Made by a program: the position numbers and the translations under genes. This document shows positions 4,384-50,191 of a stretch of DNA of 64,000 nucleotides, one piece after another; within the stretch, counting starts at the first letter, position 1; each line of letters starts with the position of its first letter. The DNA is from a virus (Duplodnaviria; Caudoviricetes), in the IMG/VR virus record IMGVR_UViG_3300013121_000013, positions 32,001 to 96,000 of that record. The stretch is one strand, 5' to 3'. A model generated the notes under the pieces. The model was not told the origin of the DNA and made no database searches. It was given only the letters and a program-made list of their open reading frames with translations.

Positions 4384-4773
4384 TTGTATAAAAAGATGGA
4401 TCCAACAGAGCCTATATTAACAAGGCTTAAAAAAAGAAACGATAAGACCGGAGAAACCGAAATAGGTAATTTTTGGGCTGGCGTAGAGCAGTATCAAAAA
4501 CCTAGATTTTTAACTAGACTATTTACTGACGACGAGAACAAGCAATACAACACGGCCACTAACCATTCATTTGCTGTGGACCTGGATGAATATAAAAATA
4601 GACCAGAGTCTTTAAAGAAAGAGGTCGATGCAAGATCTGCACTGTGGTTGGCAGCACTAGTTGAAAACTATCCTAAGCAGTATAGATTTGAAGGTGAAGA
4701 TCTATATACAGTGCCAGAAGAAGTTGCTTTAAAAGGTCCAAAAAGTAACACCAACTTAGAGTATAAAGTTTGA
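4384..4773 (+). CDS. Hypothetical protein, possibly the frameshifted C-terminus of the upstream gene
   Basis: Weak RBS. Its frame is open back through the T10 run at 4331-4340. Confidence 0.5.
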   Translation: MYKKMDPTEPILTRLKKRNDKTGETEIGNFWAGVEQYQKPRFLTRLFTDDENKQYNTATNHSFAVDLDEYKNRPESLKKEVDARSALWLAALVENYPKQYRFEGEDLYTVPEEVALKGPKSNTNLEYKV

Positions 4774-4787
4774 TAGACGTCTAGCAA
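4770..4787. promoter_or_regulatory. 18-bp palindrome, copy 1 (TTGATAGACGTCTAGCAA, 1 mismatch)
   Basis: Overlaps the TGA stop and lies just before the next RBS; matches four other copies. Confidence 0.7.
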
Positions 4788-4801
4788 AAAGGAAATGTTT
4801 T

Positions 4802-5542
4802 ATGCCAATGTATAACCCCGAGTTAATGAGACTTGCGCAGAAAAAGGCTTCTGCTCGAAAGAAGCAAGCATTTGTACCAGGCGATCCGGCTGCAGCAGCA
4901 GGTGGAGGAGGTGGAATGCCTATGGATCCTGCAATGATGGGTGGCGCTCCTCCTATGGATCCTGCAATGATGGGTGGCGCTCCTCCTATGGATCCTGCAA
5001 TGATGGGTGGCGGGGGAATGCCGCCAGCTGCACCACCACCTCCTCCTCCAGCACCTCCTGCACCTCAGCCAGCTACAGCTGAATCAGGAGGAAAACCTCC
5101 TAAGCCTGATATCAATACAGTTGCTAACGACATTTGGCAAGTTAAAAAGATGGTTGAAGGCATCTATCATAGAAATGAATGGCCATTACCTCAAGGCTTG
5201 ATAGACGGCCCTAATAGAGACCCAGCGACAGGCGCTGCTGTGCCGCCTGGAACACCTGGATCTACAAGCGACATGTCGGCACCTACTCAGAATCCTGCAG
5301 GCGGGGGCGGCGGCGCTATACCAGCCATAGAGCCGATGGAAGCCGCCAGTTTTGGAGGAGGCGGAGAAAAGAGTGGAAGCTTTAAGCGGACAGAAGTTGT
5401 AGGTGAGCCTTATGCAGATTCGTCTAGAACTGGCCGACATAGAAACAATATAACTACAATGTCTAAAGCAGCTGCCGTGGCCAGATTGGTTCAGGGTCTG
5501 GCTATGAAACGGGAGAAAGAACGTGCGTCTAGAAGCTCATAA
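4802..5542 (+). CDS. Pro/Gly/Met-rich putative internal head protein
   Basis: N-terminal KKASARKKQAF, PMDPAMMGGAP repeats and poly-Pro. Confidence 0.6.
   Translation: MPMYNPELMRLAQKKASARKKQAFVPGDPAAAAGGGGGMPMDPAMMGGAPPMDPAMMGGAPPMDPAMMGGGGMPPAAPPPPPPAPPAPQPATAESGGKPPKPDINTVANDIWQVKKMVEGIYHRNEWPLPQGLIDGPNRDPATGAAVPPGTPGSTSDMSAPTQNPAGGGGGAIPAIEPMEAASFGGGGEKSGSFKRTEVVGEPYADSSRTGRHRNNITTMSKAAAVARLVQGLAMKREKERASRSS
4919..5012 (+). repeat. 33-bp tandem repeat, ~2.8 copies (PMDPAMMGGAP)
   Basis: CCTATGGATCCTGCAATGATGGGTGGCGCTCCT starts at 4919, 4952 and 4985 (partial). Confidence 0.95.
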
Positions 5543-5786
5543 TGCTTTTGGAGATGTCATCAACTCAGAAGTGACTAGGGTTGTTGTATATGATGACTAT
5601 GACAACCCTATTTCTGTAACATTTAAATACAACGACGGCAATATCTTTACAGCTAATGTCACCGACCCTGATTTTCAAAGAATTCTTTCTTTTTTAGGTA
5701 TTAAAAAAATTGTAAAGGTATCAACTTTAAAGTCTACGAGTATAAAAGATGCTATCGACAACAGCAGGACAATTCTTAATCAATGA
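5523..5786 (+). CDS. Small hypothetical protein overlapping both neighbours
   Basis: 87-aa ORF with a GTG start after GGGAG. Confidence 0.55.
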   Translation: MRLEAHNAFGDVINSEVTRVVVYDDYDNPISVTFKYNDGNIFTANVTDPDFQRILSFLGIKKIVKVSTLKSTSIKDAIDNSRTILNQ

Positions 5787-7638
5787 ATCGCTTCCACCAG
5801 ATCTCAGAGACTACAATAGAGTTCTGGATATGAAAGGCATTAAAAAATTATTTCAAGATATAGCTGAAAAGCATCCTGATAACTATAAGGATATAACAAA
5901 GAAGTTATTTGATATAGCCAGAACTAGTGCTTACGAGACTGGAGGCTATTCTTTTGCTTTAGAGCATTTAACTAAAGCTAAGTCGGCTAAGGCAATAACT
6001 GAGAAGATAAGACAAAAAGTTAATGCTATAAATATGGACAATACGTTGTCCAAAGACGAAAAAGAAAAGAAAATTCTAGAGACTGTCTTAGGCGAAGATG
6101 AAAATTTAACTAATGCTGTCTATAAAGAAAGTCTAGAAGAAAACAATCCTATAGCATTGCAAGTTAAATCTGGTGCTAGGGGTAAGCCTATGAACTTGAG
6201 AAGTCTACGTGGAGCAGACTTAACGTATGTTGATCACAGAGATAGACCGATTCCTATACCTATTTTAAGGAGCTATAGCGAAGGTTTGTCTCCAGCTGAA
6301 TACTTCGCTGCAGCTTTCGGAGCTAGAAAGGGCATTATCGATGTTAAGTTTGCAACTCAAGATGCTGGGTATTTTTCAAAACAGCTAAATCAAGCTACAC
6401 ATAGACTAATGGTGTCTGCTACAGATTCAGAAACTGAACCCACTAACATTAGGGGACTTCCAGTAGATACAAATGATTCGGATAACGAAGGAGCACTATT
6501 GGCTTACCCTGTTGGCGGGTATCCAAGAAATACAGTACTAACTCCTAAAATATTAAATGATCTACAAAATAAGGGCATAGACAAGCTCTTAGTAAGGAGC
6601 CCTCTAGTAGGCGGACCTGAAGATGGTGGAGTGTATGCTAGAGATGTAGGGGTCAGAGAAAGAGGAACTCTCGCGCCTATCGGAGATATGGTAGGAATTA
6701 CAGCCTCGCAGGCATTAAGCGAGCCTCTAAGTCAAAGCCAACTTTCATCAAAGCACAGTGGAGGCGTTGCCGGAGCAGCTAAGGGTGTCAGCGGATTCAA
6801 GCTGATGGATCAATTAGTTCAGGTTCCAAAAACATTTCCAGGCGGTGCTACTCACGCACAGATTGACGGTAGGGTAGAACAGATAGTCGAAGCTCCTGCT
6901 GGAGGTCATTATGTAACTATATCAGGAGAGCGACATTACGTCCCTTCTGGTCTAGATCTTAAGGTTAAAAAAGGTGATCCGATAGAAGCTGGCGATGTCC
7001 TGTCTGCCGGTATTCCCAATCCTTCAGAAATTGTAAAACATAAAGGAATTGGTGAAGGTAGACGTTATTATGCAAATTTATTCAAGTCCTCTTTAACGGA
7101 ATCAGGAATACCAGCAAATAGAAGGAATGTTGAACTTCTAGCTAGGGGCTTGATAAACCATGTCAGAATCACAGAAGAAATGGGCGAATACGTACCAGGT
7201 GATGTATTGCCATATAACGTCTTAGAGAGTCGCTATCAGCCACGTGAAGGGCATAAGGTAATGGACCCAAAACAAGCTGTTGGCCACTACCTTGAAGAGC
7301 CTGTACTTCACTACAGTATAGGCACAAAGATTAGACCAACGATGATACCTGATTTACAGAGATACGGTGTAAGTAATGTCAAGGTGCATCCCGATCCAGC
7401 GTATTTTGAACCTGAAATGGTCAGAGGAATGCAGAACGTGACACAAGACCCAGATTGGATGACGAAGATGCTTGGTTCTAACCAGCAACGAAGTCTGTTA
7501 TCAAGTGTCCATAGAGGTAATAGAAGTGACGAACAAAGCACTAGCTTTGTCCCAGCTTTAGCCAAGGCCGAGGGCTTTGGTATAACAAGTAAAGTAAAAG
7601 ATTGGCATAAGACGCCAAAGGAGTTGTTCAGTGACTAG
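5749..7638 (+). CDS. RNA polymerase beta' subunit, C-terminal half (funnel, bridge helix, trigger loop, clamp)
   Basis: TTAGQFLIN (~TTxGR), NPI..QVKSGARG, bridge helix SEGLSPAEYFAAAFGARKGIIDVKFATQDAGYFSKQL, trigger loop GDMVGITASQALSEPLSQSQLSSKHSGG, and RRNVELLARGL. Confidence 0.92.
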   Translation: MLSTTAGQFLINESLPPDLRDYNRVLDMKGIKKLFQDIAEKHPDNYKDITKKLFDIARTSAYETGGYSFALEHLTKAKSAKAITEKIRQKVNAINMDNTLSKDEKEKKILETVLGEDENLTNAVYKESLEENNPIALQVKSGARGKPMNLRSLRGADLTYVDHRDRPIPIPILRSYSEGLSPAEYFAAAFGARKGIIDVKFATQDAGYFSKQLNQATHRLMVSATDSETEPTNIRGLPVDTNDSDNEGALLAYPVGGYPRNTVLTPKILNDLQNKGIDKLLVRSPLVGGPEDGGVYARDVGVRERGTLAPIGDMVGITASQALSEPLSQSQLSSKHSGGVAGAAKGVSGFKLMDQLVQVPKTFPGGATHAQIDGRVEQIVEAPAGGHYVTISGERHYVPSGLDLKVKKGDPIEAGDVLSAGIPNPSEIVKHKGIGEGRRYYANLFKSSLTESGIPANRRNVELLARGLINHVRITEEMGEYVPGDVLPYNVLESRYQPREGHKVMDPKQAVGHYLEEPVLHYSIGTKIRPTMIPDLQRYGVSNVKVHPDPAYFEPEMVRGMQNVTQDPDWMTKMLGSNQQRSLLSSVHRGNRSDEQSTSFVPALAKAEGFGITSKVKDWHKTPKELFSD

Positions 7639-18011: not shown

Positions 18012-18428
18012 ATGCCTAATTTGACAACTGCTCAAGAAGTCATCGAGCACATCAAGGTTTCTAGCGAGATTGCTGAACGTGCAATGAAGATGGCTAACGA
18101 AAAGAAAGCTCAGGACCAGGCAATTGCGGCCAAAATTCCAGAGGCTGTAGATGCATTGATCCAGAGAGGATTTGTACCTAGTGAGTACGCAGAAGAAGCC
18201 AAGCAAGCTCTTGCTGATCCTGTGCGTGCTCTTGATGTCTTAATTAATACAGCTTGCTATTCGCCAGATAACACTAATCATCTAGGTGAACAAGTTTCAA
18301 ACGGAAGAAGTGAGAAACAAGCTTCTACCAGAGGCAACGTAGACAGCCCTTATTGCGGAGTTCGCTCGTCTACAAAGAGAGCTTCTGATCTTGCGTTTGA
18401 GCAAGGTATTCTTGGTAGAAGAATATAA
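18012..18428 (+). CDS. Small head/scaffold-associated protein
   Basis: Helical; EKQAS and TKRAS motifs; in the head operon. Confidence 0.55.
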   Translation: MPNLTTAQEVIEHIKVSSEIAERAMKMANEKKAQDQAIAAKIPEAVDALIQRGFVPSEYAEEAKQALADPVRALDVLINTACYSPDNTNHLGEQVSNGRSEKQASTRGNVDSPYCGVRSSTKRASDLAFEQGILGRRI

Positions 18429-18446
18429 TTGATAGATGTCTATCAA
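18429..18446. promoter_or_regulatory. 18-bp palindrome, copy 2 (TTGATAGATGTCTATCAA)
   Basis: Immediately after the stop codon; the symmetry extends to 18426-18449; upstream of the decoration and capsid genes. Confidence 0.75.
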
Positions 18447-24009: not shown

Positions 24010-24027
24010 TTGATAGATGTCTATCAA
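24010..24027. promoter_or_regulatory. 18-bp palindrome, copy 3 (TTGATAGATGTCTATCAA)
   Basis: Between a stop codon and the GGAGG RBS of the next gene. Confidence 0.75.
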
Positions 24028-32027: not shown

Positions 32028-32038
32028 AGGAAGTTAAG

Positions 32039-33328: not shown

Positions 33329-33717
33329 TTTGTCAAGCGGCTGCTGAGGGCCTTATTGATTTTAGTAAGGCCCAACTCCTCGATCGCTATTGGTGGAAAC
33401 GTCTTGACATACTTCTCTATCAACTAGAGAAACGTAACTATTATGACGTTATTAAAACACAGCATAACCAATGCTCTAACGCGTTGACTTATTGTGACGA
33501 TGACGAAATTTTCAAATCATATTGGAAATCTTGCAATGACCTTTTGAACGATTTGTATAGTTCTTATTTCTCTTGGGTTAAAGAAAAAGAATTATCCAAG
33601 AATAATGACGTCATTAAGCAGTTGAGAGAAGAGTACATTGCTAACTTTGGCGATCCGGACACTCCTGAGGCCAAGCAACGAATTGCAAATACTGTTAACT
33701 TCTTAATGAATAGATAG
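33301..33717 (+). CDS. Tail assembly chaperone gpT-like frameshift extension
   Basis: Overlaps the upstream gene in the -1 frame; only a TTG start and no clear RBS; directly precedes the tape measure. Confidence 0.65.
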   Translation: MESDRGCALICQAAAEGLIDFSKAQLLDRYWWKRLDILLYQLEKRNYYDVIKTQHNQCSNALTYCDDDEIFKSYWKSCNDLLNDLYSSYFSWVKEKELSKNNDVIKQLREEYIANFGDPDTPEAKQRIANTVNFLMNR

Positions 33718-33731
33718 TAATTGGAGCTGTA

Positions 33732-37997: not shown

Positions 37998-40160
37998 TTG
38001 GATTATGTCATTACATCAAAGAGAGCCTGGGCTGTAGTTACGGTCCCTTTATCTCTTATTAGTAGAATAGGCGCGGCAATAAGCGGTATTGGAGTGCTAA
38101 ATCCAATAGGTGGTATAGGTGTAGCGTCTTCTCAAACTCCTGTAGATATAACTCTAGATATTGGCAGATACAGTATAGATTGGGAGTTGAATGCTATACC
38201 CAATGCTAATTTGACAATTGCTGTTGGAAGACTAGCCAGTGACGTTAGACAAGTATCTGCAATTCATAGAATTGTCCATCAACTAAAAGAAATGGTTCCG
38301 ATCTCTATTTACATAGAGGATAGCACTTCTAATTTTGCTCCAGCATCAGAAATTGATGCTGTATATCAAGACAAGGCTATAAGAATATTTAGGGGAGTTG
38401 TTGTGTCTACTGGATTCAGGAGACACGATAACAATCTAGAATTTATTATAAGTGCGGCACATTGGCTAAGGGATCTTACGTTCTCGTCCGCATTGTCTAG
38501 ATCTAGTCATCCGTCTAATCCAAATCAGACATCTTTTAATGCAGCTTTTCCAGACCTAGCTGTAAGCGGCGGAATAGATATCGCGCCTCACGCTACAGCT
38601 GACACAATGCCAGCTAACTTCTTTTCCGTTGATGTGGTCCGTAAAGACTTCTGGGGGTCAGGAGAGACTCCTGTGGACAACACAGGAGGATTTAAACTTG
38701 GCGGAATGAAAGAATTTTTAAAGCAGCTTTCTTCCGTAGATAGAATGTATACAACACCTACAGCCAGACAAATTTTCGGACAACCCAACGACGTTAATAA
38801 TGAAAAAAATTGGGAAGCTCTAAGGGCTTTACAACATTTTGAACCAAATGCTAGATATAGATTGCCTGGAGAGGATAAAGAAACTTTAGAGTCAGGGTAT
38901 GTTGATGGTGTTCCACTATCTATGGACCTAGACGGAGTAGACGGAATAACAGCTATACACGTTGCGTCAGCTATAGGTATGACAATGGGCCGTGAAACAT
39001 TTAGTTCTATAGCTTCTCAGACGTTGTGGGACAAACTTGTAGGACAGTACGCTCCATTATTTTTATTCGCTATAGTTCCTATGGTTGAAAAAGCTTTAAT
39101 TGTACCCTTTACACCTGGGCTAAAATGGAACGGCGGAAAGAAGGGTGCTAGGTTAATAACTACTCAAGACTACTCAGGCTTTGAATTCGTATCACAAAAT
39201 ATATCTCCTTTGAAAGGGGTGTTTTTACTGACAAGCATGGCAGTAACTACAGGATATGATGTTGGTAGAGAGGATTCTCCTTCTTATACTCTGTTTGGCC
39301 CTAAGTATGTCAGTCAACAAGCAGAAAATAGTGGCGGTCTTGTTATGTTTAAATCTGCTCCTAGGTGGTTGACAGATTTAAGTATTCCATTCTTATATCC
39401 TTCAATGTCACCTCCGTTCAGCACTGCGCACGATTCCGTTACGGATAACATTAACGCAAGTTTGGAGTCTGACTTATCAGCTATATTCCTGTCAAACGGC
39501 ATAGACGATCCCAATAAAACAACTTTAATAAATGCTGTAAAGGTTATGGTCGAGGACGGAGAAAGAGATGCTGCTAAAATAATGCTGGAACTTGTACCTT
39601 TGATGAACAGTCTTAATATTACTGTCTCAACGGGATTAGCGTTATCGCTGCAAATTATGATTGGCGCGGCTGTTCAGTCGTATGCGACTAATATTGCTGA
39701 TGTTTACTCTAAGGTTTCTGGGCTGTGGGATAGGTATGCACAGGCTCTGTATGTACAAGAAAAGACTAAAGGTAGACAGGCAACCTTGACGGGAAGATTT
39801 AGACTAGACATAGCTCCAGGAACTTTAGTTAAAATTGAAACAAATAGCCCTGATCTAAATATAGCTCCTCCAGTCTGCCCAGGCTCTTTGTGCGTAGACG
39901 ACAAAGAAAGATATCTATATGGAACAGTTCTAAGAATTAGTATTTGGGGCGATGCTCAAGCTAATAAAACTGGAACGTCATTTCAGATAGGCTTTATTCA
40001 TGATGAGTATGAAGAGCAATCTTCAGACACGACAGTAGATAGGCACCCAGTTTGGGCTACAGCTTGGTATGGAGCTCCTTTGGTAGTAGATAAAGATCCT
40101 GCTACAGATAAATTCAGGCACTGGAATACACCTGTTTTAGCTCCGAATATAGTAAATTGA
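37998..40160 (+). CDS. Putative baseplate hub (gp27/gpD-like)
   Basis: IFRGVV..GF near the N-terminus; C-terminal GR.ATLTGRFRLDIAPGTLVKI..YLYG.V..I. Confidence 0.6.
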   Translation: MDYVITSKRAWAVVTVPLSLISRIGAAISGIGVLNPIGGIGVASSQTPVDITLDIGRYSIDWELNAIPNANLTIAVGRLASDVRQVSAIHRIVHQLKEMVPISIYIEDSTSNFAPASEIDAVYQDKAIRIFRGVVVSTGFRRHDNNLEFIISAAHWLRDLTFSSALSRSSHPSNPNQTSFNAAFPDLAVSGGIDIAPHATADTMPANFFSVDVVRKDFWGSGETPVDNTGGFKLGGMKEFLKQLSSVDRMYTTPTARQIFGQPNDVNNEKNWEALRALQHFEPNARYRLPGEDKETLESGYVDGVPLSMDLDGVDGITAIHVASAIGMTMGRETFSSIASQTLWDKLVGQYAPLFLFAIVPMVEKALIVPFTPGLKWNGGKKGARLITTQDYSGFEFVSQNISPLKGVFLLTSMAVTTGYDVGREDSPSYTLFGPKYVSQQAENSGGLVMFKSAPRWLTDLSIPFLYPSMSPPFSTAHDSVTDNINASLESDLSAIFLSNGIDDPNKTTLINAVKVMVEDGERDAAKIMLELVPLMNSLNITVSTGLALSLQIMIGAAVQSYATNIADVYSKVSGLWDRYAQALYVQEKTKGRQATLTGRFRLDIAPGTLVKIETNSPDLNIAPPVCPGSLCVDDKERYLYGTVLRISIWGDAQANKTGTSFQIGFIHDEYEEQSSDTTVDRHPVWATAWYGAPLVVDKDPATDKFRHWNTPVLAPNIVN

Positions 40161-40174
40161 TAGACGTCTATCAA
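40157..40174. promoter_or_regulatory. 18-bp palindrome, copy 4 (TTGATAGACGTCTATCAA, perfect)
   Basis: Contains the TGA stop of the hub gene; 2 nt before the AGGAG RBS of the sigma gene. Confidence 0.8.
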
Positions 40175-40188
40175 ATAGGAGAATTAAA

Positions 40189-40998
40189 ATGCCGTATATG
40201 GACCCTTCTCAGTTTAAGCCAAAAAAACTGAAAAGTAACTTACAAGAAGAGGCCAGCCCTCTTGATGATTTATTGCTGGAGCCCTCTTATAGAAAACAAT
40301 ATGAAGCATGGAAAAATACTCCAAGCCCAGCTACGTCTGGCGCACTTTTAAGATCTGTAGATCCAGTTATTAAATCGGCTTTAACAACATATGGAGGGAC
40401 TTCTTCCAAAAGTCCTACTTTATACAGTAAAGCTAGATTAATGGCTTTACAATCTCTACCTTCATACGATCCAAAAAGAGCAAAATTACAGACATTCTTA
40501 ATGTCACAGCTACAAGGCCTGAGAAGGGCAGCTAGTAAAGAAGAGAGAGTACTGTCAGTCCCAGAACAGGTCCTTTTAGATAGACAGCACATATTTGATA
40601 CGTCGAAGTTTTTAGAAGAAGAACTAGGTAGAGAACCATCTACTATGGAGTTGGCGGATAGATTAAAACTTTCTCCAAAAAGAATCGAGTATATACAGAA
40701 ATACAGACCAGCTATGGCTGAAGGATCGTTTGTAGCACAAACTGAGGAGGGTGGCGCAGAGCCTTGGGCTCCTGCTGTCGAGTCTGATGGCTCTGCTTCT
40801 TGGCGTGAGTTCGTATATCATAGTTTAGATAATACTGATAAGCTTATAATGGAGTACACACTAGGAATGCACGGTAGAAGTCCATTAAGCAATCAAGAGC
40901 TAGCAAAGAAATTAAGGGTATCGCCTGGGGCGATAAGCCAAAGAAAAGCTAAAATACAGGATAAAATAGATTCTAGATATGATGTTGGAGTTATGTAA
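40189..40998 (+). CDS. Phage sigma-70 family factor (regions 2, 3 and 4; FliA/SigB-like size)
   Basis: Region 2 SYDPKRAKLQTFL..L.R; region 3 LEEELGREPSTMELADRLKLS; region 4 HTH LSNQELAKKLRVSPGAISQRKAKI. Confidence 0.88.
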   Translation: MPYMDPSQFKPKKLKSNLQEEASPLDDLLLEPSYRKQYEAWKNTPSPATSGALLRSVDPVIKSALTTYGGTSSKSPTLYSKARLMALQSLPSYDPKRAKLQTFLMSQLQGLRRAASKEERVLSVPEQVLLDRQHIFDTSKFLEEELGREPSTMELADRLKLSPKRIEYIQKYRPAMAEGSFVAQTEEGGAEPWAPAVESDGSASWREFVYHSLDNTDKLIMEYTLGMHGRSPLSNQELAKKLRVSPGAISQRKAKIQDKIDSRYDVGVM

Positions 40999-41558
40999 TG
41001 CCAACTGCGTACGTGAGTGGAGTAATAGAACCTTTTAAAGAACAGCTAGACGTATTTATAAATAATGCGTCTGCTGCTTTTCAATCTATAACTCAAACCG
41101 GACAAAGAAAATGGGATGTCCCATATACTCATTTAGGCTGGGATAAGAATGTATTAAACTATACAGGCGCTAACTCTATAGCCAGTGCTTTTGATAGAGC
41201 TCTCTTAAATAGCTCTTATTGGAATGCTCTGTCAAATGGCGCGAAGTTATCTAGCGATTATGGAAAAGTAGCAGAATGTAGATGTGCGAAATATCAGATA
41301 GACGCTTTAGGTTCTATGGAAAGAGCTTTTAGAGAAAGATCAAGGAGTTACGTTAGGGCTGCTTATGTAACAGCCTCCAGATATCAGGGTCATGCCAGCC
41401 AGCAGGGACCTATAGCAGACCTTGTTCAGGTGGTCAATCGAATGATAGCTCAATCTAGCGTAGATAATATTCCTGAACAAAGACCAAGAGTTAATACTAG
41501 ACAAAAGTTTTCTGACATCGATTCATCTAGCCCAGCATCAGTAGGAGCTTTTCAATGA
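40998..41558 (+). CDS. Hypothetical protein
   Basis: Coupled to the sigma gene by TAATG. Confidence 0.5.
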   Translation: MPTAYVSGVIEPFKEQLDVFINNASAAFQSITQTGQRKWDVPYTHLGWDKNVLNYTGANSIASAFDRALLNSSYWNALSNGAKLSSDYGKVAECRCAKYQIDALGSMERAFRERSRSYVRAAYVTASRYQGHASQQGPIADLVQVVNRMIAQSSVDNIPEQRPRVNTRQKFSDIDSSSPASVGAFQ

Positions 41559-41977
41559 TAGACATTGGGTTATATACTCCTAATAAAGAAGGTATTGGTA
41601 CTCAGTCTTTTGTTTCTACTGTAAGCGCAGGTAAAGAGGTGACTGGCGAGGAGCTTCTAGCACAAAGATTTTTAATGAAGTTTCTAAAATCACCAACGAG
41701 TAGCCCATATTTTAATGACGGCTGTGGGTTTTTAGATATTCTTCAGTCCAATGTTATAACTGAGTTTGATATATTTTCAGCATTTGCTACTTCTTTATCT
41801 GAAATACGATCGCTACTGAGAGCTGAAGAGGACGAAGATACTCCTGATAACGAAACGTTTATGGATGCCAGTATAATAGAGTTGTCTTTATATGCCGATA
41901 AACTACTTCTAGGAATTGGCATATTAAGTAAAGCTGGCACTGTTGTCGGAGTTAGACTGCCAGTGGAGGTGTCTTAA
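41555..41977 (+). CDS. Baseplate wedge gp25/gpW-like protein
   Basis: VTGEELLAQRFL..FL..PTS.P....G.G pattern; precedes baseplate J. Confidence 0.7.
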   Translation: MIDIGLYTPNKEGIGTQSFVSTVSAGKEVTGEELLAQRFLMKFLKSPTSSPYFNDGCGFLDILQSNVITEFDIFSAFATSLSEIRSLLRAEEDEDTPDNETFMDASIIELSLYADKLLLGIGILSKAGTVVGVRLPVEVS

Positions 41978-43657
41978 ATGTCTATTGAAATAACGGATCT
42001 AGATAGCTTGGACCAAGCTGATGTTCTAGACGCTCTTGAACGAGCTAGGTCATTTATAAGCGAACAGTACCCGGATCGTCAGATAAAAGGTGGACCTTTC
42101 GATGAATTAGTCCTTAGATCTGATGCAATTCTAGGTACAGTTCATAGAGAGAATTTTAACAGGTTGTTAAATTCTCAAAGCTTAAAAGCGATAGAGGACG
42201 ATCCGACACTTGTAGATGACGAAGTTCTAGATTCTCTAGCTTCTAATTATCGCATAGAAAGATCTGAAGGTCAGTTAGCGTCCGGTAGCGTAATGATAGT
42301 AGTATCTAATAACAACGACACTGTCATAGCAATAGGAACTAGATTTACCGCTCCTAACGGCAAGACTTTTGAAGTGACAAATCTATTTACTGGTAGGGGC
42401 AGCGCCAATAATGTAGTGACCAGTAACGATAGATTAATGATAGAGTTTGATGACTCTACTTACGGCTTCATAGTTGATGTTATAGCTACAGAAGTTGGAG
42501 CAGACGGTAATATAGAGATATTTACTACATTAACAAATGAGTCTCCAACTTCTAACTTTATTAGAGCCTATGCGAGCAATACGTTTACTGGAGGTCTTGA
42601 TGAAGAAAGCACTGCTAGTTTGTTGCCAAAGCTACAGGCTGGAATAGCGCACAGATCTCTAAGTAGTAGATCCTCTATTGAAGGTGTTATTAGATCAGAT
42701 GAGGATTATGCCAATATAGTTGCACTGTCAGTCGTTGGATATGGTGACCCCGAACAAATACGTTATCATGGGCTGTTTCCTATAGCTTTTGGAGGTAGAG
42801 TAGATGCTTACGTAAGGTCGTCAGAAAATTTAAATATAGTAGAGCTAACAAAAACTGCAACTCTCATTAATGCAAACGGAACGTGGCAGTTTACTATCTT
42901 CAGAGATGACGTGCCTGGGTTCTATGAGATAAGCAAGATTCTTTTACCAAGTCAATCAACAGACTCCACTGGATTCTCGGTATCTTCTGACATAAGGGGT
43001 GTCGATACAACTGAGGACCCACAATCAGATTCAACACCAGGAACTTCTTTTATACCAGATATAGAAACGGCTGAAGAAGCTGCGTACAGTAGGTATCAGA
43101 CAGCGGTTATAAAGTTTCTAGACGATGAAACATCAACTGCAGGATTAACTCCAGGAGTGTCAACTGCTAGCTATAAAGTTTATGTTAAAGCCATGCCTGG
43201 TATAGCTGAAATACAAGATCTAGTTTCTGATAGATCAGTTAGAAGTCCTGCTGGAGATTGCTTGGTCAAGGCTGCAGTTCCTTGCTTTACTAGCATAACT
43301 ATAGAGATTGAAAAAAAGAGTTCTGACCCTGATATAGATACAGATGTTATAAAGCAAGATATAATAAGAACAGTTAATTCCACCGGTTTTACAGGAAAAT
43401 TGTCTGCATCAAAAATTACGGCGGCTGTCGAGTCTTCAGTAAGGGCGCAATCAATAACAGATTTTTCTATAGCGTCTATATCATTAGTTGGTAGAATACT
43501 TCGGCCAGATATGACTACTAGAACAGTAACAAGTAGTACTATGCTTGAAATTGGAGATGAAGCTAGTAAGATGGTTACTGGTAGAACTACTGTTTTTATA
43601 ACTTCTACTGATATTATCACAATAACTGTGTCTTCTTCCGATTCTCCGGAAATTTAA
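41978..43657 (+). CDS. Baseplate J/gp6-like wedge protein
   Basis: LD.LA.NY.I.R..G..ASG.V, G..GNI, FTGG.DEES and GGRVD.YV motifs. Confidence 0.85.
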   Translation: MSIEITDLDSLDQADVLDALERARSFISEQYPDRQIKGGPFDELVLRSDAILGTVHRENFNRLLNSQSLKAIEDDPTLVDDEVLDSLASNYRIERSEGQLASGSVMIVVSNNNDTVIAIGTRFTAPNGKTFEVTNLFTGRGSANNVVTSNDRLMIEFDDSTYGFIVDVIATEVGADGNIEIFTTLTNESPTSNFIRAYASNTFTGGLDEESTASLLPKLQAGIAHRSLSSRSSIEGVIRSDEDYANIVALSVVGYGDPEQIRYHGLFPIAFGGRVDAYVRSSENLNIVELTKTATLINANGTWQFTIFRDDVPGFYEISKILLPSQSTDSTGFSVSSDIRGVDTTEDPQSDSTPGTSFIPDIETAEEAAYSRYQTAVIKFLDDETSTAGLTPGVSTASYKVYVKAMPGIAEIQDLVSDRSVRSPAGDCLVKAAVPCFTSITIEIEKKSSDPDIDTDVIKQDIIRTVNSTGFTGKLSASKITAAVESSVRAQSITDFSIASISLVGRILRPDMTTRTVTSSTMLEIGDEASKMVTGRTTVFITSTDIITITVSSSDSPEI

Positions 43658-43664
43658 TGGAGCT

Positions 43665-44402
43665 ATGATGTTGTCCAGATTTCCTAGATTTATTATATCG
43701 ATCATAATTTTAAGCACCATGCTTGTAGGTGCTACGCTAAAAGCAGAAGAAGGAACTAATTCTGTTCCTGGTCTAGTTCTACCTCCAAATAGCTCTGTTA
43801 GCTATAATAATGTAGCAGCTATAAGAATTAAAGCTAACACTACATCTAAAAATGTTAGATTCTTAGTTGTTGGTAGCGTACCCGATATTAAGTCTAAGCA
43901 AACAGATGCAAATACTATTGTTATAGATTTACCACAAAAAGACGCAACTATTTTTGTTTATGCAGTTGCTTGGTTGAATGGAGATTTCACTCCGTTTGCT
44001 AAAACTGTGGTGGTTGTAAAGGGAGACAGCACATCTGTTTCTTCTGACCCTGTTAATCCAACTACATCTACACCCTCGAAGGAATCTTTACCTGAGTTGG
44101 ATAAAAGTATAGCTATAACAATTGTTATGGATAAAGTTGATAATAAAAGTCAAGTTGTTAGTAATTATGTTAAGTCTAAAGAAGTACAAGATTGGCTAAC
44201 ATCTGGCAAGCACAAACTTATAATATATTATAACGACAATCCCGAACATTTAGCTTCTATTAAAAGACGTAAGCTTGAAGCGTTCTTAAAACCTACTGGG
44301 ATGGTTACACAAGAACTCTCAACCGGGACTTTACTTGATAGTAGGCCTGTCCCGGCAACTTTAGAAGACTTTATTAAAAATATAAATGAAATGTTTAAAT
44401 AA
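43665..44402 (+). CDS. Secreted hypothetical protein
   Basis: Signal peptide ending in LKA; Pro/Ser/Thr linker between two domains. Confidence 0.6.
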   Translation: MMLSRFPRFIISIIILSTMLVGATLKAEEGTNSVPGLVLPPNSSVSYNNVAAIRIKANTTSKNVRFLVVGSVPDIKSKQTDANTIVIDLPQKDATIFVYAVAWLNGDFTPFAKTVVVVKGDSTSVSSDPVNPTTSTPSKESLPELDKSIAITIVMDKVDNKSQVVSNYVKSKEVQDWLTSGKHKLIIYYNDNPEHLASIKRRKLEAFLKPTGMVTQELSTGTLLDSRPVPATLEDFIKNINEMFK

Positions 44403-44418
44403 GAACTAGGAGATATAA

Positions 44419-44823
44419 ATGTCAACTCATGTTTTATCGATGCTGACTGATGAGCAGAAGACAGTCGCAGAGCTAATGGTAGTAAATCATAATCTTAGCT
44501 GGGATTGGGTTTCTGATTTAGTAAATAAAGCATCGCCGGCAGTTTTGGATCTAGTTAGGCTAGCTCTAGACTTGGGTTTAAGTAAAGAATGGGTAGCTGA
44601 AGCTTTAGATAAACTCGGTCCTGTTATGTTGGAGTTTATCATTGTCGTGCTCAGAAAAAAGGAGCTAGATAATGTTCCAGCCTCAGCATCGAATATGTCA
44701 CATGTAGAGGATCTACAGCTAAACGATCTAGTTAAAAAGCTATTGCCAGCCCTGCTAGACGCCTTTGGCCCACAAATAGTGGATTTACTGACTACAGCCC
44801 TAATTAAAGCCCTGGCAAAGTAA
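44419..44823 (+). CDS. Leu-rich amphipathic hypothetical protein
   Basis: AGGAG RBS; repeated K.GP..L..I pattern. Confidence 0.55.
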   Translation: MSTHVLSMLTDEQKTVAELMVVNHNLSWDWVSDLVNKASPAVLDLVRLALDLGLSKEWVAEALDKLGPVMLEFIIVVLRKKELDNVPASASNMSHVEDLQLNDLVKKLLPALLDAFGPQIVDLLTTALIKALAK

Positions 44824-44835
44824 TAGTCCAATATT

Positions 44836-44871
44836 GAATACAAAGCCGTTTAATGAAACGGCTTTGTATTC
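44836..44871. terminator. Perfect 16-bp hairpin (terminator-like) upstream of the cytochrome cassette
   Basis: GAATACAAAGCCGTTT-AATG-AAACGGCTTTGTATTC. Confidence 0.75.
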
Positions 44872-44896
44872 TACTGATTTAATGAAAAGGACAGAG

Positions 44897-46675
44897 ATGA
44901 CACCTGGTAACAACTATAACAGATTGAATGTTGTTCTGACATTAATAGTGACTGTTGCTATTTTTGGTTTAACACTAAGAAATACTGAGAGTAAGGACTC
45001 ATATAAGGTGTTAATTCCTAGCTCCTTTAAGTTGCTAGAAGCAGAAGGTAAAGAATTTCTTATACCTAATCTAACTAGTTTAAAGGTTGTAAATCTTAAG
45101 GATCTGCCTATGTACAGTGGGCCCGGACAATCTAAGGACGGCCCAAATATTCCAGATCAAAAAAAAGAAGTACTACCATTTAGACACGTAGTACCAGCTA
45201 AAGCATTACTTAATCCTCAACACTCGACATTTCACGCTAATTTGGATTTACTAACTGTCCCTCTGGAAGACAGAAAATATTTAATGTATTTTTCCGCATA
45301 CAATTTTCCTAAGGAACACCGAAGAAGTATATGGGAAACACTGTCGTTTACAGTGAATTCGCTAAGTACAGAAAGAGCTATAAAAACTCCTGTAATAGTG
45401 GCTAACACGGATGACTCTCTCTTTAGAATAGATATTAGATGGTATGGATGGGATAGAAAAGTCGTAGAAGAGTTAATTACAAAGGGCAGTGGTCCAAAGC
45501 CATTACCAGAACCTTATTTCTATATGACGTTTGTTAAAGCGGAAGACGCTAAAGTAGAGAAAACTCCATATACAGAAAAAGAAACAGTTTTAGTTCAGAA
45601 TCAATTTGGGCAGCTTGTGCATCATACAAGAGAGGTTACAAAGTATAGAGAAGTTAAGACGGCTGGAAGTAAGAAGACTATACAAGCTATTGCTCCGTGG
45701 ATATCGCCTATATCAGCAAAGACTCTTTCAGAAAGCTTGCATACTACTACTCCTATAGTTAGAGCAGATTGGTTTATAGTGTACTCTATGTTTGCGCCAA
45801 TGTATTATAAGTTTCTCGGGGTTAAAGATAGAAAAGAAAAAGAACTTAAAGTCATAGCTATCTTCGATGAAAAGAATACGGATAAAGTAGAGTTAAGAGG
45901 TACGGCTGATACTAAAGTTGTAGCTTTAAATAATAGAATTCTTGTTAGAGTTCCAACTATAGCTTCTGTTAAAGGCGCCTACTGGTGGGAGTCCAACGAT
46001 TTTTCAAAAAGTGTAGATGAGGGCGATGTTCACAACAATTTGTTTGCAACACCAGAAGCTAAGGAAATTATATTTTCATTAAGAAATGGTTTGCAGGCTT
46101 ATGGATTATCGGATAAAGACGGAAATCTAGTAGATGTTGCACCTCCGCAGTTTGCCCAAGATACAGAGATTAAGAATCACGATAAGCAGGTATACAACGC
46201 TAGAAATTGTGTTACTTGTCATCAACAAGGTATACGAACCTTTAAAAATAAAGTAAAAGAATTAAGTCAAGGTACGGTCGCTCTTCTGGTGGCTAAAGAG
46301 AAGGATGCAAAGAAGGTAGAAGATAAATACTTCTCCTATGACATAGAAGATCTTATTAAAAGAGATCAGTTGCTATACTCAGAAGCAGTTGCATCTGTTA
46401 ACGGACTAACTGCTGCAGCAAATGCAACACAGTTTGATCTTCTTCAATATAACTATCTTGAAAACCAAATAACCCTATCAGCAATAGCCTATGAAACAGG
46501 GATTGAAAAGGAAAAGATACTAGACATGCTAAAAAAAGCCGTTAATATAGACCATACTTTAGTCGGGTTATTAAAAGAAGATCCCATCAGCATACGTAGA
46601 GAACAATTTGAACGAAGAGGGTTTCCTCAACTAGCTATGCTTATAATGCAGGCTAACTTGTACTCTGATAAGTAA
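44897..46675 (+). CDS. Membrane-anchored/secreted c-type cytochrome-like protein (one CxxCH)
   Basis: ATG 44897 follows AAGGA; N-terminal hydrophobic anchor; EIIFSLRNGLQAY...ARNCVTCHQQG with CxxCH at 46208-46222. Confidence 0.7.
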   Translation: MTPGNNYNRLNVVLTLIVTVAIFGLTLRNTESKDSYKVLIPSSFKLLEAEGKEFLIPNLTSLKVVNLKDLPMYSGPGQSKDGPNIPDQKKEVLPFRHVVPAKALLNPQHSTFHANLDLLTVPLEDRKYLMYFSAYNFPKEHRRSIWETLSFTVNSLSTERAIKTPVIVANTDDSLFRIDIRWYGWDRKVVEELITKGSGPKPLPEPYFYMTFVKAEDAKVEKTPYTEKETVLVQNQFGQLVHHTREVTKYREVKTAGSKKTIQAIAPWISPISAKTLSESLHTTTPIVRADWFIVYSMFAPMYYKFLGVKDRKEKELKVIAIFDEKNTDKVELRGTADTKVVALNNRILVRVPTIASVKGAYWWESNDFSKSVDEGDVHNNLFATPEAKEIIFSLRNGLQAYGLSDKDGNLVDVAPPQFAQDTEIKNHDKQVYNARNCVTCHQQGIRTFKNKVKELSQGTVALLVAKEKDAKKVEDKYFSYDIEDLIKRDQLLYSEAVASVNGLTAAANATQFDLLQYNYLENQITLSAIAYETGIEKEKILDMLKKAVNIDHTLVGLLKEDPISIRREQFERRGFPQLAMLIMQANLYSDK

Positions 46676-46685
46676 GGGGCTGAAG

Positions 46686-47372
46686 ATGTACATAAAGTTT
46701 ATGTGCTTGCTTTCTATAGTAGTTGTATCAACTTTGCTATATTTTCTACCTGCTTCTACAAAAGCTGGTTCTGTGACAACCCACGTAGTCCGGCACAATA
46801 GTCATGTAGTTCAGTATCCTATTCAACCGTTTTATCAATCAATAGTTGTACCTGCGTATTCATTTCAATATCTACCTGCTGTCAGTAGCTACACCTCTCC
46901 AGTAGTGCCACCCATATCTGCTCTTGTGCAGCAAGAGATGGCTAGAAGACAGCAGCTAAATTTAAACTCTAGTAATTTAAAAGAAGTAGTAGCAGAAGTA
47001 CTAAGACAGCTGGAGCAGCAAAAAGTAAAAATACCTAACGACGGAATGCCGGTTGTTTTTGATCCATCTACCGCTAGGAGTGAATCAAGAGCACAAGCTA
47101 AAGAAGCCGATAATAGCCAACTACCAGATATGACAGCGTACGCTCTGCAAGTACTTCAACATAGATGCGCAAGATGCCATACTGAGCCAGGAAGAGGAGA
47201 TGTCTTTCTGTTCACTAAACAAGGCGTTTATAGCCCAAACACTACAATAGCTTCTATATACGAAGAAATTCGCTCGCAAAGAATGCCTCCAGGTGCTAAA
47301 CTAGATCCTGACAAGAGATTACCAAAAGCCGAGCTTGACGTTATCGAAGCTTGGGCCTCACAAAGCAGATAA
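46686..47372 (+). CDS. Secreted monoheme cytochrome c domain protein
   Basis: Signal peptide; VLQHRCARCH (47166-47180)..RMPP..L...E..VI.AWA class I cytochrome c signature with a Met axial ligand. Confidence 0.8.
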   Translation: MYIKFMCLLSIVVVSTLLYFLPASTKAGSVTTHVVRHNSHVVQYPIQPFYQSIVVPAYSFQYLPAVSSYTSPVVPPISALVQQEMARRQQLNLNSSNLKEVVAEVLRQLEQQKVKIPNDGMPVVFDPSTARSESRAQAKEADNSQLPDMTAYALQVLQHRCARCHTEPGRGDVFLFTKQGVYSPNTTIASIYEEIRSQRMPPGAKLDPDKRLPKAELDVIEAWASQSR

Positions 47373-47396
47373 CAAATTTATTTCAAGGAGAATTAG

Positions 47397-47996
47397 ATGA
47401 AGAATCTTATCTTTACAGTTTTTGCGTCGTTTGTAGCTTTCACCGGAAATGTGTTTGCTGGCCATTGCGGTGTCAGCTCAGTAAGTTATAATCATGCCTA
47501 TAGCCAAGTTGTAACTCAGGCTGCATATACATATGTTGCTCCTATAGTCGTTCCTCTTGTGGCGTTACCAGTACAACCTGTTGTTTCTCAGGTACAGGCC
47601 ACTGTGCAGCAAGCTCCAGTAGTTGTTACAGCTCCAGTAGCTCCTGTATACTCTCAGCCAGTGGTAGGTTTTAATGTTTACTCTCTTCCTCAAACCTACA
47701 ATTATGGAGTTAGCCAGCTTGGAGTAGCTGCTAAACTAGTGAACACTGTAAAAGTAGTAGCGCCGCATGCTCCAGCCAAGGTTGTGTTGCAGCAGAAAGT
47801 TGTTAAGATTAAACAGCCAGTTGTTGTCAAGCAACAAAATGTGATTGTTAAGAGGCAGGAAGTTGTTGTCAAACAGCAAAATGTTGTTGTAAAAAGACAA
47901 AACGTGCAGAATCAAAGATTGGACGTAAAAGTCGTTAATAGATCTGCGTCCAGATTTTCTGCTAATAGAGTTTCAGTAAGAGTTAGATCTAGATAA
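47397..47996 (+). CDS. Secreted Val/Gln-rich low-complexity protein
   Basis: Signal peptide (VFA-GHC); VVVKQQN-type heptad repeats; AAGGAG RBS. Confidence 0.7.
   Translation: MKNLIFTVFASFVAFTGNVFAGHCGVSSVSYNHAYSQVVTQAAYTYVAPIVVPLVALPVQPVVSQVQATVQQAPVVVTAPVAPVYSQPVVGFNVYSLPQTYNYGVSQLGVAAKLVNTVKVVAPHAPAKVVLQQKVVKIKQPVVVKQQNVIVKRQEVVVKQQNVVVKRQNVQNQRLDVKVVNRSASRFSANRVSVRVRSR
47820..47903 (+). repeat. Four degenerate 21-bp units (V-V/I-V-K-Q/R-Q-N/E)
   Basis: GTTGTTGTCAAGCAACAAAAT-like units in tandem. Confidence 0.8.
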
Positions 47997-48019
47997 AATC
48001 TTCAAATTGAAGTGACATA

Positions 48020-48050
48020 AAGCACCTTGTGTGTTAAACTCAAGGTGCTT
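48020..48050. terminator. Hairpin closing the cytochrome cassette
   Basis: AAGCACCTTG...CAAGGTGCTT 10-bp stem followed by AT-rich sequence. Confidence 0.65.
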
Positions 48051-48082
48051 ATTCATTTAACGCTATAGAGGATTATAGAATA

Positions 48083-49570
48083 ATGTCAGCTATTTTTCCT
48101 TCAAATGATTTTGAACGAAAAGGCCAGTTAGTAAAGCAATTGGGTTCTTTTTGGAATGGTATCTTTGACGACGCAGAATTTATTTCTGATCGAGAAGTCA
48201 CCCTACTTCAAGAGGCTAGGCAGACATATGATATAGCCAGAGAGAATCTTTTGTCTATAAGTCGATTTACTATTCCTGTATATAATAAAGAAGAATGGCT
48301 GATCTTATCCATAGACGAAGCGGATATGCAAATCGGCAGAATAGTAGAATCTGGGAACGCTTACTCATTTGAAGAAAATACAACAGTTGCTGATCCAGTA
48401 TTTGCGTTCCCACTAAGATCGGACATCAAAGAAGTCGGCTCTATAGTAGATAAAAAAACAAATCCAAATATCCTTCTTATTAATAGCGTTGATTATTTTG
48501 TAGATGCAGAGAATTCTTTAATAGTCTTCAAGTCCAATCCGTTTTTAAACAGTTCTCTAAAAGTTGAGGCTACATATAGCGCTCAAGGTGTAGAAGAGCA
48601 AAGTATAATCAAGCTGTGGATGAATAAGGTATATGTTGATAAGAATAGAATATATAGCCAATTTGGATATGTGATCTCTCTATGGCTTAAATCAAGCGCT
48701 CAATATAGAGATATATTAAACTATATATTTGATAATTTAATGTTTGGTAATTCTCATAAAGCGTTTATAGGCAGTCTAGCCTTGATGGCTGATTGTCCAA
48801 TTTCGTTAGTGAATAACGAGGTTGTAGAAGATATAGTATATAGAAGCTCAGAGACTTTAATAATCACTGATAGAAACGTTTATAAGGCGCACAAGGATGC
48901 AAGTGTAGTTGTTGATATTGGAGAAGTGTTACTAGAAGGTCAATTCCTAACCGATACTTTAAAGGTTATAAGTCTAAACTCAGCTATTCTGCCGTCGTCT
49001 GTTACCTCTCTATCTATTGGAAAAGGCCTACTTATTGGAAGAGGATATACTGACGAACTTGTGTTTGAAAACAAAGTCGTGGATACAGAGATAAGTTCTG
49101 ACTCAAATGGTAAAACTAAAATTGAATGGGAAATTGTAGGCAACGATGCGGATAAGAGGTTATTCTGGGATACTGTCCATCAAAATGGTGTAGATAACGA
49201 TCAGACTTTAGCCAATTTCTTAGACCGTAGAACTAATAAAGTCGGTGAACCAAGTGCGTCTAACCTACCTAGGACCGTTAATCCTCTTAAATTTCTTGTA
49301 GATAATTTTTTAAGAAATGTAATAATAGTCGAAGCTAACTTTAATACATTTGGAAGGAACTCCCTAGGGTTTAATAATACAAACATTGTTAGAAGATTGA
49401 TTCCGCCTCAGTATTTATTAATCTTTATTGTAACTATCAGCATTTCTGAGGTTTCCAACAGATTTCCGCTACAGTCTGAAAGCACTACAACTTTCTTTAC
49501 TGGAGCTCCGAATGTAATTCAGTCAGTATCATCAACACTTATAGGAAACAGCAGCTTTACATTTAGTTAA
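48083..49570 (+). CDS. Baseplate wedge (gpI/gp7-like) protein
   Basis: Resumes the baseplate order after J; FG......S..YR..L..I and RRLIPP motifs. Confidence 0.55.
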   Translation: MSAIFPSNDFERKGQLVKQLGSFWNGIFDDAEFISDREVTLLQEARQTYDIARENLLSISRFTIPVYNKEEWLILSIDEADMQIGRIVESGNAYSFEENTTVADPVFAFPLRSDIKEVGSIVDKKTNPNILLINSVDYFVDAENSLIVFKSNPFLNSSLKVEATYSAQGVEEQSIIKLWMNKVYVDKNRIYSQFGYVISLWLKSSAQYRDILNYIFDNLMFGNSHKAFIGSLALMADCPISLVNNEVVEDIVYRSSETLIITDRNVYKAHKDASVVVDIGEVLLEGQFLTDTLKVISLNSAILPSSVTSLSIGKGLLIGRGYTDELVFENKVVDTEISSDSNGKTKIEWEIVGNDADKRLFWDTVHQNGVDNDQTLANFLDRRTNKVGEPSASNLPRTVNPLKFLVDNFLRNVIIVEANFNTFGRNSLGFNNTNIVRRLIPPQYLLIFIVTISISEVSNRFPLQSESTTTFFTGAPNVIQSVSSTLIGNSSFTFS

Positions 49571-49586
49571 AGGATAATAAATTCAG

Positions 49587-50177
49587 ATGTCAAATCCTAA
49601 AAGCTTTACTACGATTTGGACCATTAATGAGTCTGGGCTCTGGACGCCAGTAGCAACGGCTCCAAATGATTTAACATATAAATGGGCTTATCTTGTAATC
49701 AAAACTCTGGCTCATGGCGATATGGACTACAAGATATCGTCCATGTATATGGAATTTGAAAATGTTGCTTCCCCTTCAACTTTGGCTACTGTCCCAACTA
49801 TAGATAGAGAAGATCAACTGGGTTACTATAATAGCCTTAGTGCAAATAAGGACTTTTTAAGGGTTAATTTAGTGTCTAACCCAGCTATTTCCATATCGTC
49901 AGGATTTGAAAGTTATTTCAACGAAGGAGAAGGAAACACGGTTACGTTCTTTGCTCAATCTGCTGGGGTTACCGGAATTCTTGGTAGAGATTTTTCAAAT
50001 TCTTCTAATAGTAAAATTTATGGTTCAGCTCTTGTGGCCACTCCAGTAAGCTCTGATAGATATCAAGATATAATTTTTGCTAGATCATATTACGACGGTG
50101 TTATCGTACCTCAACAGCTAAAATCGGCAAATACCCAGATAGGTATAAGCTGGACTGTTCCTTTTGAAGAAAATTGA
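49587..50177 (+). CDS. Baseplate/tail-fibre attachment protein
   Basis: IFARSY..K.....I.W.V.F C-terminus typical of fibre-proximal baseplate proteins. Confidence 0.55.
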   Translation: MSNPKSFTTIWTINESGLWTPVATAPNDLTYKWAYLVIKTLAHGDMDYKISSMYMEFENVASPSTLATVPTIDREDQLGYYNSLSANKDFLRVNLVSNPAISISSGFESYFNEGEGNTVTFFAQSAGVTGILGRDFSNSSNSKIYGSALVATPVSSDRYQDIIFARSYYDGVIVPQQLKSANTQIGISWTVPFEEN

Positions 50178-50191
50178 TAGATATCTATCAA
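50174..50191. promoter_or_regulatory. 18-bp palindrome, copy 5 (TTGATAGATATCTATCAA, perfect)
   Basis: Contains the TGA stop; upstream of the tail fibre gene. Confidence 0.8.

Follow-up and report, generated by a model that had tools for sequence, protein, structure and literature searches.

The stretch of DNA analyzed here (the window) covers 64,000 nucleotides (nt) of a Caudoviricetes genome, bases 32001-96000 of a 155,646-bp virus record from wastewater that is estimated to be 76% complete (IMGVR_UViG_3300013121_000013, hereafter G000), and it carries an 18-bp palindrome that recurs at gene junctions. The window opens within a polymerase gene. The 3' part of the RNA polymerase (RNAP) beta/beta'(N) gene occupies 2..2743 on the plus strand (the whole gene, encoding 2509 amino acids [aa], lies at genome positions 27214-34743); the beta'(C) gene, recognized by homology, lies at 5749..7638 (+); and a phage sigma-70-family factor, recognized by the Pfam domain Sigma70_r3 and a region-4-like C-terminal helix-turn-helix (HTH), is encoded at 40189..40998 (+), downstream of a copy of the palindrome. 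A motif scan recovers four exact copies of the palindrome, TTGATAGAYRTCTATCAA, at 18429, 24010, 40157, and 50174, against a chance expectation of 0.00 and with no match in 100 dinucleotide-preserving shuffles of the window. A fifth copy, at 4770, reads TTGATAGACGTCTAGCAA and departs from the consensus by a single mismatch in its right arm (TCTAGCAA). The first-pass annotation had placed the palindrome at these five positions, correctly except that the 4770 copy is not strictly of the consensus form, and had also noted the variable center, which in positional order is CG, TG, TG, CG, and TA. Two weaker matches, at 41191 (two mismatches) and 49981 (three mismatches), are intragenic and at the level of chance, given that 0.65 matches are expected in the window at up to three mismatches.

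All five copies sit at junctions of open reading frames (ORFs) and, as palindromes, are assigned to no strand. The mismatched copy (4770..4787), inside the RNAP gene cluster, supplies the TGA of the ORF at 4384-4773, and the ATG of a 246-aa ORF lies 14 nt past it. The copy at 18429..18446 (center TG) begins right after the TAA of the ORF at 18012-18428 and is followed by an untranslated gap of 156 nt and then by genes for 226-aa and 309-aa proteins, the latter being the most conserved protein in the phage family. The copy at 24010..24027 (center TG) starts 5 nt past the stop of the ORF at 23003-24004; a GGAGG begins 1 nt past its end, the ATG of a 301-aa gene lies 13 nt past its end, and the same junction in the related genome G004 holds that phage's own palindrome. 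The copy at 40157..40174 (center CG) supplies the TGA of the 720-aa ORF at 37998-40160 and is followed by AGGAG and the ATG of the sigma-factor gene, 14 nt downstream, while that at 50174..50191 (center TA) supplies the TGA of the ORF at 49587-50177, with the tail-fiber gene next. Thus, as had been proposed, three copies provide the stop codon (at 4773, 40160, and 50177) and four lie just before a ribosome-binding site, the start codon being 13-22 nt past the site with a Shine-Dalgarno-like sequence in between; the 18429 copy instead precedes the long gap. The proposal that every copy overlaps or directly follows a stop codon likewise holds, the 24010 copy being set off from its stop by a few nucleotides. 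Among the downstream genes that it named, the sigma factor, the tail fiber (by PHROG), and beta'(C) are borne out, although the last lies two ORFs past the 4770 copy; the labels "decoration/capsid" and "neck-tail" have no family matches and are backed only by synteny with phage Arash. A 21-kb DNA contig, about 1.7% divergent, covers 38000-51275, and none of the differences listed between the two falls in 40157-40174; it is not used as evidence here.

Across the whole G000 record, 13 copies are present at up to one mismatch (nine exact and four with one mismatch, where approximately none are expected), at genome positions 6046, 19918, 36770, 50429, 56010, 72157, 82174, 107554, 111638, 122524, 136453, 142813, and 150265. 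The record is about 94% coding, with nearly all genes on one strand, as judged from simple longest-ORF calls on an incomplete genome. Nonetheless, 11 of the copies fall between ORFs, one lies over the last 35 nt of an ORF, and only one, a mismatched copy, is intragenic. In eight of the 13, the site begins no more than 60 nt past a stop codon, compared with 7.9% of random positions (p = 1.4e-6), and Shine-Dalgarno sequences begin 1-6 nt past the site. The copies are not scattered randomly inside genes, and about every tenth gene boundary of the phage bears the palindrome. The suggestion that the element links RNAP, sigma, and virion genes in one regulon is right but too narrow, since sites are also found ahead of a tRNA array and of many genes that lie beyond the window.

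This phage belongs to an almost unstudied group with genomes of approximately 150-225 kb, whose members encode a sigma factor and a polymerase in which beta and beta' sequences are fused in one gene. With the beta'(C) protein (5749-7638) as query, eight related viral loci were recovered, and five of their records (G001-G005) were studied; these span 153-226 kb, have 54-69% GC, and share 53-59% beta'(C) identity, with G002 and G004 being sisters at 79%. Further relatives were seen at intermediate identities of 47-73%. The G000 motif itself occurs in none of the five, also when two mismatches are permitted; instead, each has a junction dyad of its own, which emerged from scans for new palindromes and over-represented words. 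The G000 form, TTGATAGA-YR-TCTATCAA (13 copies), thus has counterparts in AGTATT-NN-AATACT of G001 (19-22 copies), TTGWTC-N4-GAWCAA of both G002 (21 copies) and G004 (29 copies), the pseudo-palindrome TAGAAAC-YR-weaker arm of G003 (20 copies), and TCnnAAAACCGGTTTTnnGA of G005 (25 copies). The genes form a single-strand array in all six genomes. In G000, G001, G003, G004, and G005, the five genomes tested, dyads are over-represented just past stop codons (p from 1.2e-4 to 3.9e-11) and constitute the top intergenic-enriched word besides Shine-Dalgarno sequences and tRNA T-arms. They are the clearest cis-signal in these phages and a handle on how transcription is organized. The arms have 17-33% GC in genomes of 40-69% GC, which fits DNA that has to be opened, and the central step of the dyads is mostly pyrimidine-purine. 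G002 and G004 retain the arms at four orthologous junctions but differ there in the flanks and in the four bases of the center; the common motif type and this retention of the arms indicate vertical inheritance. Likewise, an outer TTGAT...ATCAA with a central A-Y-R-T is common to G000 and the G002/G004 pair, and RAAAC...GTTTY to G003 and G005, suggesting that the sequences drift along the phylogeny rather than being re-invented. What is new here, on the evidence of these comparisons, is a family of large polymerase-encoding phages in which the same dyad design is re-coded in every lineage. This combination of a constant design and a changing sequence also offers a route to the reader of the site by covariation with more genomes. 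In the distant cultured relative Arash, no palindrome family was found in the 50 kb examined.

Beyond this family, a search of 596 Gb of genomes gave 43 single matches, about the number expected by chance, and no bacterial genome with two copies; the lack of any bacterial genome with several copies indicates that this is not a host regulon. Metagenome contigs yielded 102 matching loci, none of them related to G000, and viral contigs yielded 41 matching loci, mostly single chance matches. Among the latter, certain small phage contigs (L005, L006, L011, L012, L014, L019, L026, L027, L033, L035, and L038, including IMG/VR 3300042518_000380 and 3300044966_000174) carry TTGATAGACCTCTATCAAC, with the same arms and the center CC, four times within about 4 kb at intergenic positions. 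They were considered as relatives and are treated as unrelated, there being no protein similarity to G000 by tblastx; their motif could have arisen by convergence on an identical half-site, or the two groups could have a reader in common that has diverged past detection.

The surroundings of the sites tie them to transcription rather than translation, as far as can be judged from the terminators, tRNA arrays, and RNA features that adjoin them. Sites directly follow strong intrinsic terminators six times, where about 0.9 would be expected; at 142784-142817 of G000, a hairpin of -14.9 kcal/mol with a T run merges into the 142813 copy. That copy (142813-142830) in turn lies 4 nt ahead of tRNA-Glu (142835), the first of six tRNAs, and in G004 one copy fills the gap between tRNA-Thr and tRNA-Lys while another lies 3 nt past tRNA-Gln. 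Such positions ahead of tRNA genes imply a role that is not translational. At two tandem small genes of G004, which are also among these terminator-linked cases, the order is terminator, palindrome, Shine-Dalgarno sequence, and ATG, leaving no room for another promoter or signal. In about ten G004 genes (at 421, 29132, 38964, 92882, and about six more sites, in gene-oriented coordinates), the ATG stands only 1-7 nt past the core (CAAaATG), which leaves no room for a Shine-Dalgarno sequence and suggests that these mRNAs would be leaderless if the site is a promoter. Comparisons of Shine-Dalgarno use between motif-bearing and ordinary junctions are to be read in light of naive start-codon calls and of the fact that the motif can itself contain AGGA. 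Matches to host-type sigma-70 promoters in the window are at the level of chance, as is the outcome of the terminator scan.

When a lytic phage brings its own polymerase, a motif that recurs at gene junctions and is private to the lineage is normally the phage promoter, as in the T7 group. This rule, together with the existence of pseudo-symmetric bacterial promoters and the association with terminators and tRNAs, leads us to put first a reading in which the palindrome is a phage-private symmetric promoter, or a promoter-gating site, for the phage's own RNAP; we give it a little less than an even chance. The possession of beta/beta' and sigma genes, the abundance of RNAP beta, beta', and sigma in the virions of the distant relative Arash (PMC10585845), the absence of a detectable Phage_integrase domain from the five records searched, the chance-level host promoters, and the lack of host copies all fit a phage that uses its own signals. 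Under this explanation, the double-stranded 18-bp site would be read by a twofold-symmetric, phage-encoded factor, which might be a dimeric specificity protein or a part of the phage's multisubunit RNAP machinery. The site would mark the heads of transcription units in the nearly one-strand gene array, with transcription starting at its downstream edge or no more than about 2 nt away, such that the ribosome-binding site, the start codon, or the tRNA would be the very first element of the RNA. Fast co-evolution of reader and site would then yield a different palindrome in each lineage. The existence, symmetry, AT-richness, junction placement, and lineage privacy of the site, its lack of hairpin covariation, and its association with terminators and tRNA arrays are direct observations, whereas binding by a protein, promoter activity, the start position, and the nature of the reader are deduced from sequence. 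In its general form, the initial suggestion of an operator for a dimeric regulator or a promoter for the phage RNAP therefore stands, in that a private, symmetric, AT-rich site heads blocks of genes and every relative has a version of it. A more specific proposal, possible but distinctly doubtful, is that these sites represent a new class of promoter for a multisubunit RNAP: a twofold-symmetric element of 14-20 bp centered about 9-10 bp upstream of the start and read by a fast-evolving dimeric specificity factor, not by the conserved sigma. Transcripts would start at its edge, giving (near-)leaderless mRNAs and tRNA transcripts, and re-coding in each lineage would define orthogonal promoter-reader pairs. 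In several G004 genes, the A of the ATG is 2 nt past the core, and in both G000 and G004 a tRNA begins 5 nt past the end of the site. If the sites are promoters, they would be rare instances of strictly symmetric promoters for a multisubunit polymerase, with five or more orthogonal promoter-reader pairs.

An inverted repeat placed immediately 5' of Shine-Dalgarno sequences could alternatively act as an RNA hairpin in a polycistronic transcript, as a processing site (one of the options raised at first pass), a stabilizer, or a translational operator. Indeed, predicted folds of the perfect copies have a 7-bp stem closed by a loop of 4 nt (-6.1 to -9.4 kcal/mol, z = -2.2 to -3.8). However, the 4770 copy folds only weakly (-2.3 kcal/mol, z = -0.5), and in G005, a genome with 69% GC, the stem would be no more than four or five A-U pairs enclosing CCGG. 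More tellingly, pairing is not maintained, and compensatory changes are seen in none of the genomes. All four imperfect copies of G000 are uncompensated; the W-W position is unpaired in 18 of the 29 G004 copies (A/A in 11, T/T in 6, and A/G in 1, with 11 paired) and in 8 of the 21 copies in G002; and none of the 20 G003 sites is a perfect palindrome, one arm always being a strong TAGAAAC and the weak arm lying upstream in 12 sites and downstream in 8, so that the two orientations would produce different RNAs. Furthermore, there is no Rfam match at gathering score in the window (0 matches), and translation is irrelevant to the copies that precede tRNA genes. These points make an RNA hairpin quite improbable and count against the processing-signal option in particular. 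The motif also lacks the anatomy of an intrinsic terminator, its arms having 25% GC with no T run behind them; true terminators stand just upstream of some copies. The same loss of pairing speaks against a promoter formed by extruded DNA (a hairpin or cruciform), as used by the N4 virion polymerase, an option that had also been raised and that would suit an inverted repeat with a small center. N4 early promoters have a hairpin centered near -11, and the distance of about 10 nt from the dyad center to the first functional RNA base, as placed here by position, resembles this. Nevertheless, the polymerase encoded by these phages is a multisubunit beta/beta' enzyme with sigma, and a search for the T7/N4-type RNA_pol family (PF00940) gave no match in the five records, the control genomes being likewise without a match; we regard an N4-type hairpin as very improbable, the least favored of the explanations considered. 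Taken together, arm changes without compensation and a weak half-site that can lie on either side point to duplex DNA in which two half-sites are read independently by a symmetric protein, rather than to a hairpin of RNA or DNA.

A symmetric protein on duplex DNA need not be part of a promoter, and several observations weigh against the promoter or gating interpretation. The site is as tight on the upstream stop codon as on the downstream ribosome-binding site, such that its closeness to gene starts may reflect genome compaction alone. A symmetric element has no direction, and the occurrence of the asymmetric G003, G004, and G005 versions in both orientations fits a dimer operator at least as well. 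Positions at junctions are conserved only between the sisters G002 and G004, and Pfam and PHROG searches of 30 proteins returned no regulator other than sigma that might serve as the reader. In addition, there is a second, directional element, box B (TTTT(C)TTTA[GC]CYATC[AG]G), which is conserved across all six genomes (40-69% GC) and follows terminators; the promoter of a conserved sigma-polymerase should itself be conserved, and box B is a candidate for that role. Where the two elements occur together (G002 151533; G004 72852 and 117738), the palindrome lies 3-12 nt downstream of box B, the classic position of a repressor operator. Accordingly, the site may be an operator or roadblock of a dimeric phage repressor, akin to a stoperator, that throttles the upstream polymerase and gates gene blocks in time without promoter activity of its own. 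A symmetric site in either orientation is the normal signature of a dimeric operator, and dispersed, stop-overlapping operators at short junctions are known from cluster A mycobacteriophages (PMC9283540, PMC6550527). Were this so, the sites would make up a gating network that spans the genomes of lytic phages, a counterpart to the stoperators of temperate ones. However, there is no sign of lysogeny, the five records searched yielded no integrase, and no conserved HTH_3 or ParB-type regulator was found. Copies right after strong terminators and before the tRNA array, with no other promoter-like element, would leave the genes dependent on terminator read-through, and box B, at about 3-8 copies per genome, is too infrequent to drive 150-225 kb. 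On balance, we view this explanation as unlikely, but as the main rival of the promoter reading. Evenly spaced docking for some other DNA-level role, such as chromosome organization, loading of a clamp or partition complex, punctuation for replication or packaging, or recombination hot spots at cassette borders, would accord with the fairly even spacing of the sites (medians of 4.7-13.7 kb across the genomes) and with the turnover of their positions between lineages. It is improbable, as ParB_N (PF02195) was not found in the five records searched, the controls being positive, and the placement of the sites follows gene starts, terminators, and tRNA arrays rather than simply distance, with no specific tendency to border accessory genes.

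Several known systems share features with the palindrome. The promoters of the T7 group (T7, T3, SP6, and K11) are conserved elements of about 17-23 bp that are repeated at junctions of a co-directional lytic genome, private to a lineage, and situated near ribosome-binding sites, and they co-evolve with the specificity of the phage's own polymerase; here too, a conserved lineage-private motif heads co-directional transcription units. They differ in being asymmetric and directional and in serving a single-subunit polymerase, whereas the present element is a dyad, occurs in both orientations, accompanies a multisubunit beta/beta' enzyme and sigma, and has a merely predicted start site. The KorB OB operators of the IncP plasmid RK2, and parS-type sites generally, resemble it as about a dozen dispersed palindromes serving one global control network, but no ParB_N or KorB-type protein was detected in the five records searched. 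The stoperators of cluster A mycobacteriophages (of the L5 gp71 type) are likewise lineage-specific, with many dispersed copies in very short gaps that often lie over stop codons (PMC9283540, PMC6550527), a placement shared by the palindromes. However, stoperators are asymmetric, transcription-oriented sites of 13-14 bp bound by the monomeric immunity repressor of temperate phages (PMC9283540, PMC6550527), while the present site is palindromic, asymmetric variants in the relatives point both ways (12:8 in G003), and the phage, with no integrase or repressor found, looks lytic. Matching in anatomy is a 17-bp dyad of cluster O mycobacteriophages, TGTTCGGNNNCCGAACA, which is present in 34 copies in Corndog and is of unknown function (PMC4351075): it shares invariant inverted arms of 7-8 bp, a variable center, dozens of copies that are mostly intergenic or near starts, and the lack of orientation bias. 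Yet it belongs to 72-kb siphoviruses without a polymerase of their own, unrelated in sequence, phage type, and host, and is accompanied by predicted SigA promoters, whereas no host-type promoters stand out in the G000 window. Finally, bacterial bidirectional promoters are pseudo-symmetric around the -10 element, with starts about 18 bp apart (Warman et al. 2021, as cited in PMC10268837; PMC12825309). The phage element, an AT-rich dyad with its predicted first transcribed base at the downstream edge, would share this geometry, although those promoters have an odd-length A-N3-T core read with sigma-70, and the phage dyads are of even length, with 6-8 conserved bases per arm that vary between lineages. 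Thus, the stoperator, N4-hairpin, ParB/KorB, terminator, and Rfam classes each fail in at least one defining feature.

With regard to the reader itself, the sigma factor is probably not the protein in question, because the recognition helices of its region 4 in G000 and G001 differ at a single residue even though the palindromes of these phages are unrelated. The ribbon-helix-helix (RHH)-like protein encoded at 59493-59729, which the first-pass annotation had put forward as a binding candidate, finds no support: it has no Pfam or PHROG match and is not among the genes with relatives in at least three related genomes. The product of the 246-aa ORF that follows the 4770 copy in the polymerase cluster has no recognizable relatives in the ESM Atlas. 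A conserved 122-aa neighbor of the polymerase gene, with eight homologs and no Pfam domain, was considered and set aside as too invariant for a fast-evolving reader. Some of the relatives encode small extra proteins with Sigma70_r4-type HTH domains (G003:C1:60105-60251 on the minus strand; G005:C1:124381-124470, G005:C1:7286-7360, and G001:C1:116052-116114 on the plus strand), the best of which, in a 151-aa ORF of G003, reaches E = 2.8e-10; these are candidate extra specificity factors. As for the polymerase, the N-terminal part of the ORF at 20-2743 of the window (residues 10-285) weakly matches PHROG profiles of thymidylate synthase and of the terminase large subunit, and may be an element inserted in the beta/beta' gene, such as an intein or homing module.

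Box B itself is preceded by a GC-rich hairpin with variable stems. A Shine-Dalgarno sequence and a start codon often come right after it, and the palindrome of that genome sometimes lies within 3-50 nt downstream. Its copies were located at window positions 54969-54980 (genome 86969) and genome positions 13239, 24490, and 154431 in G000; at 42 and 156819 in G001; at 151533 in G002; at 43103, 88723, 90847, and 137983 in G003 and 72852, 77661, and 117738 in G004 (both in gene-oriented coordinates); and at 54072, 193761, and 198040 in G005. Box B may serve the conserved sigma-polymerase as its promoter, or it may be a terminator box in extended form. In Arash, a 32-nt direct repeat that precedes gp212 and gp216 (L256 7606-7637 and 9382-9413) loosely resembles it. 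Another short word, GTAAGCT, is enriched in intergenic regions of G000 (6 of 11 copies), with several copies preceded by a TTTAAAT-like AT-rich sequence; it occurs at window positions 8235, 16489, and 18469 (genome 40235, 48489, and 50469) and at genome position 10719. One of these copies lies 22 nt past the 18429 palindrome, within the 156-nt gap before the 226-aa gene, and the word may represent a further signal or mark where a leader RNA begins. In G002, a dense local repeat array unrelated to the palindrome, with 10-14 copies of a repeat that contains AAGCAATCCCCAGCCAAG, occupies 146130-147511.

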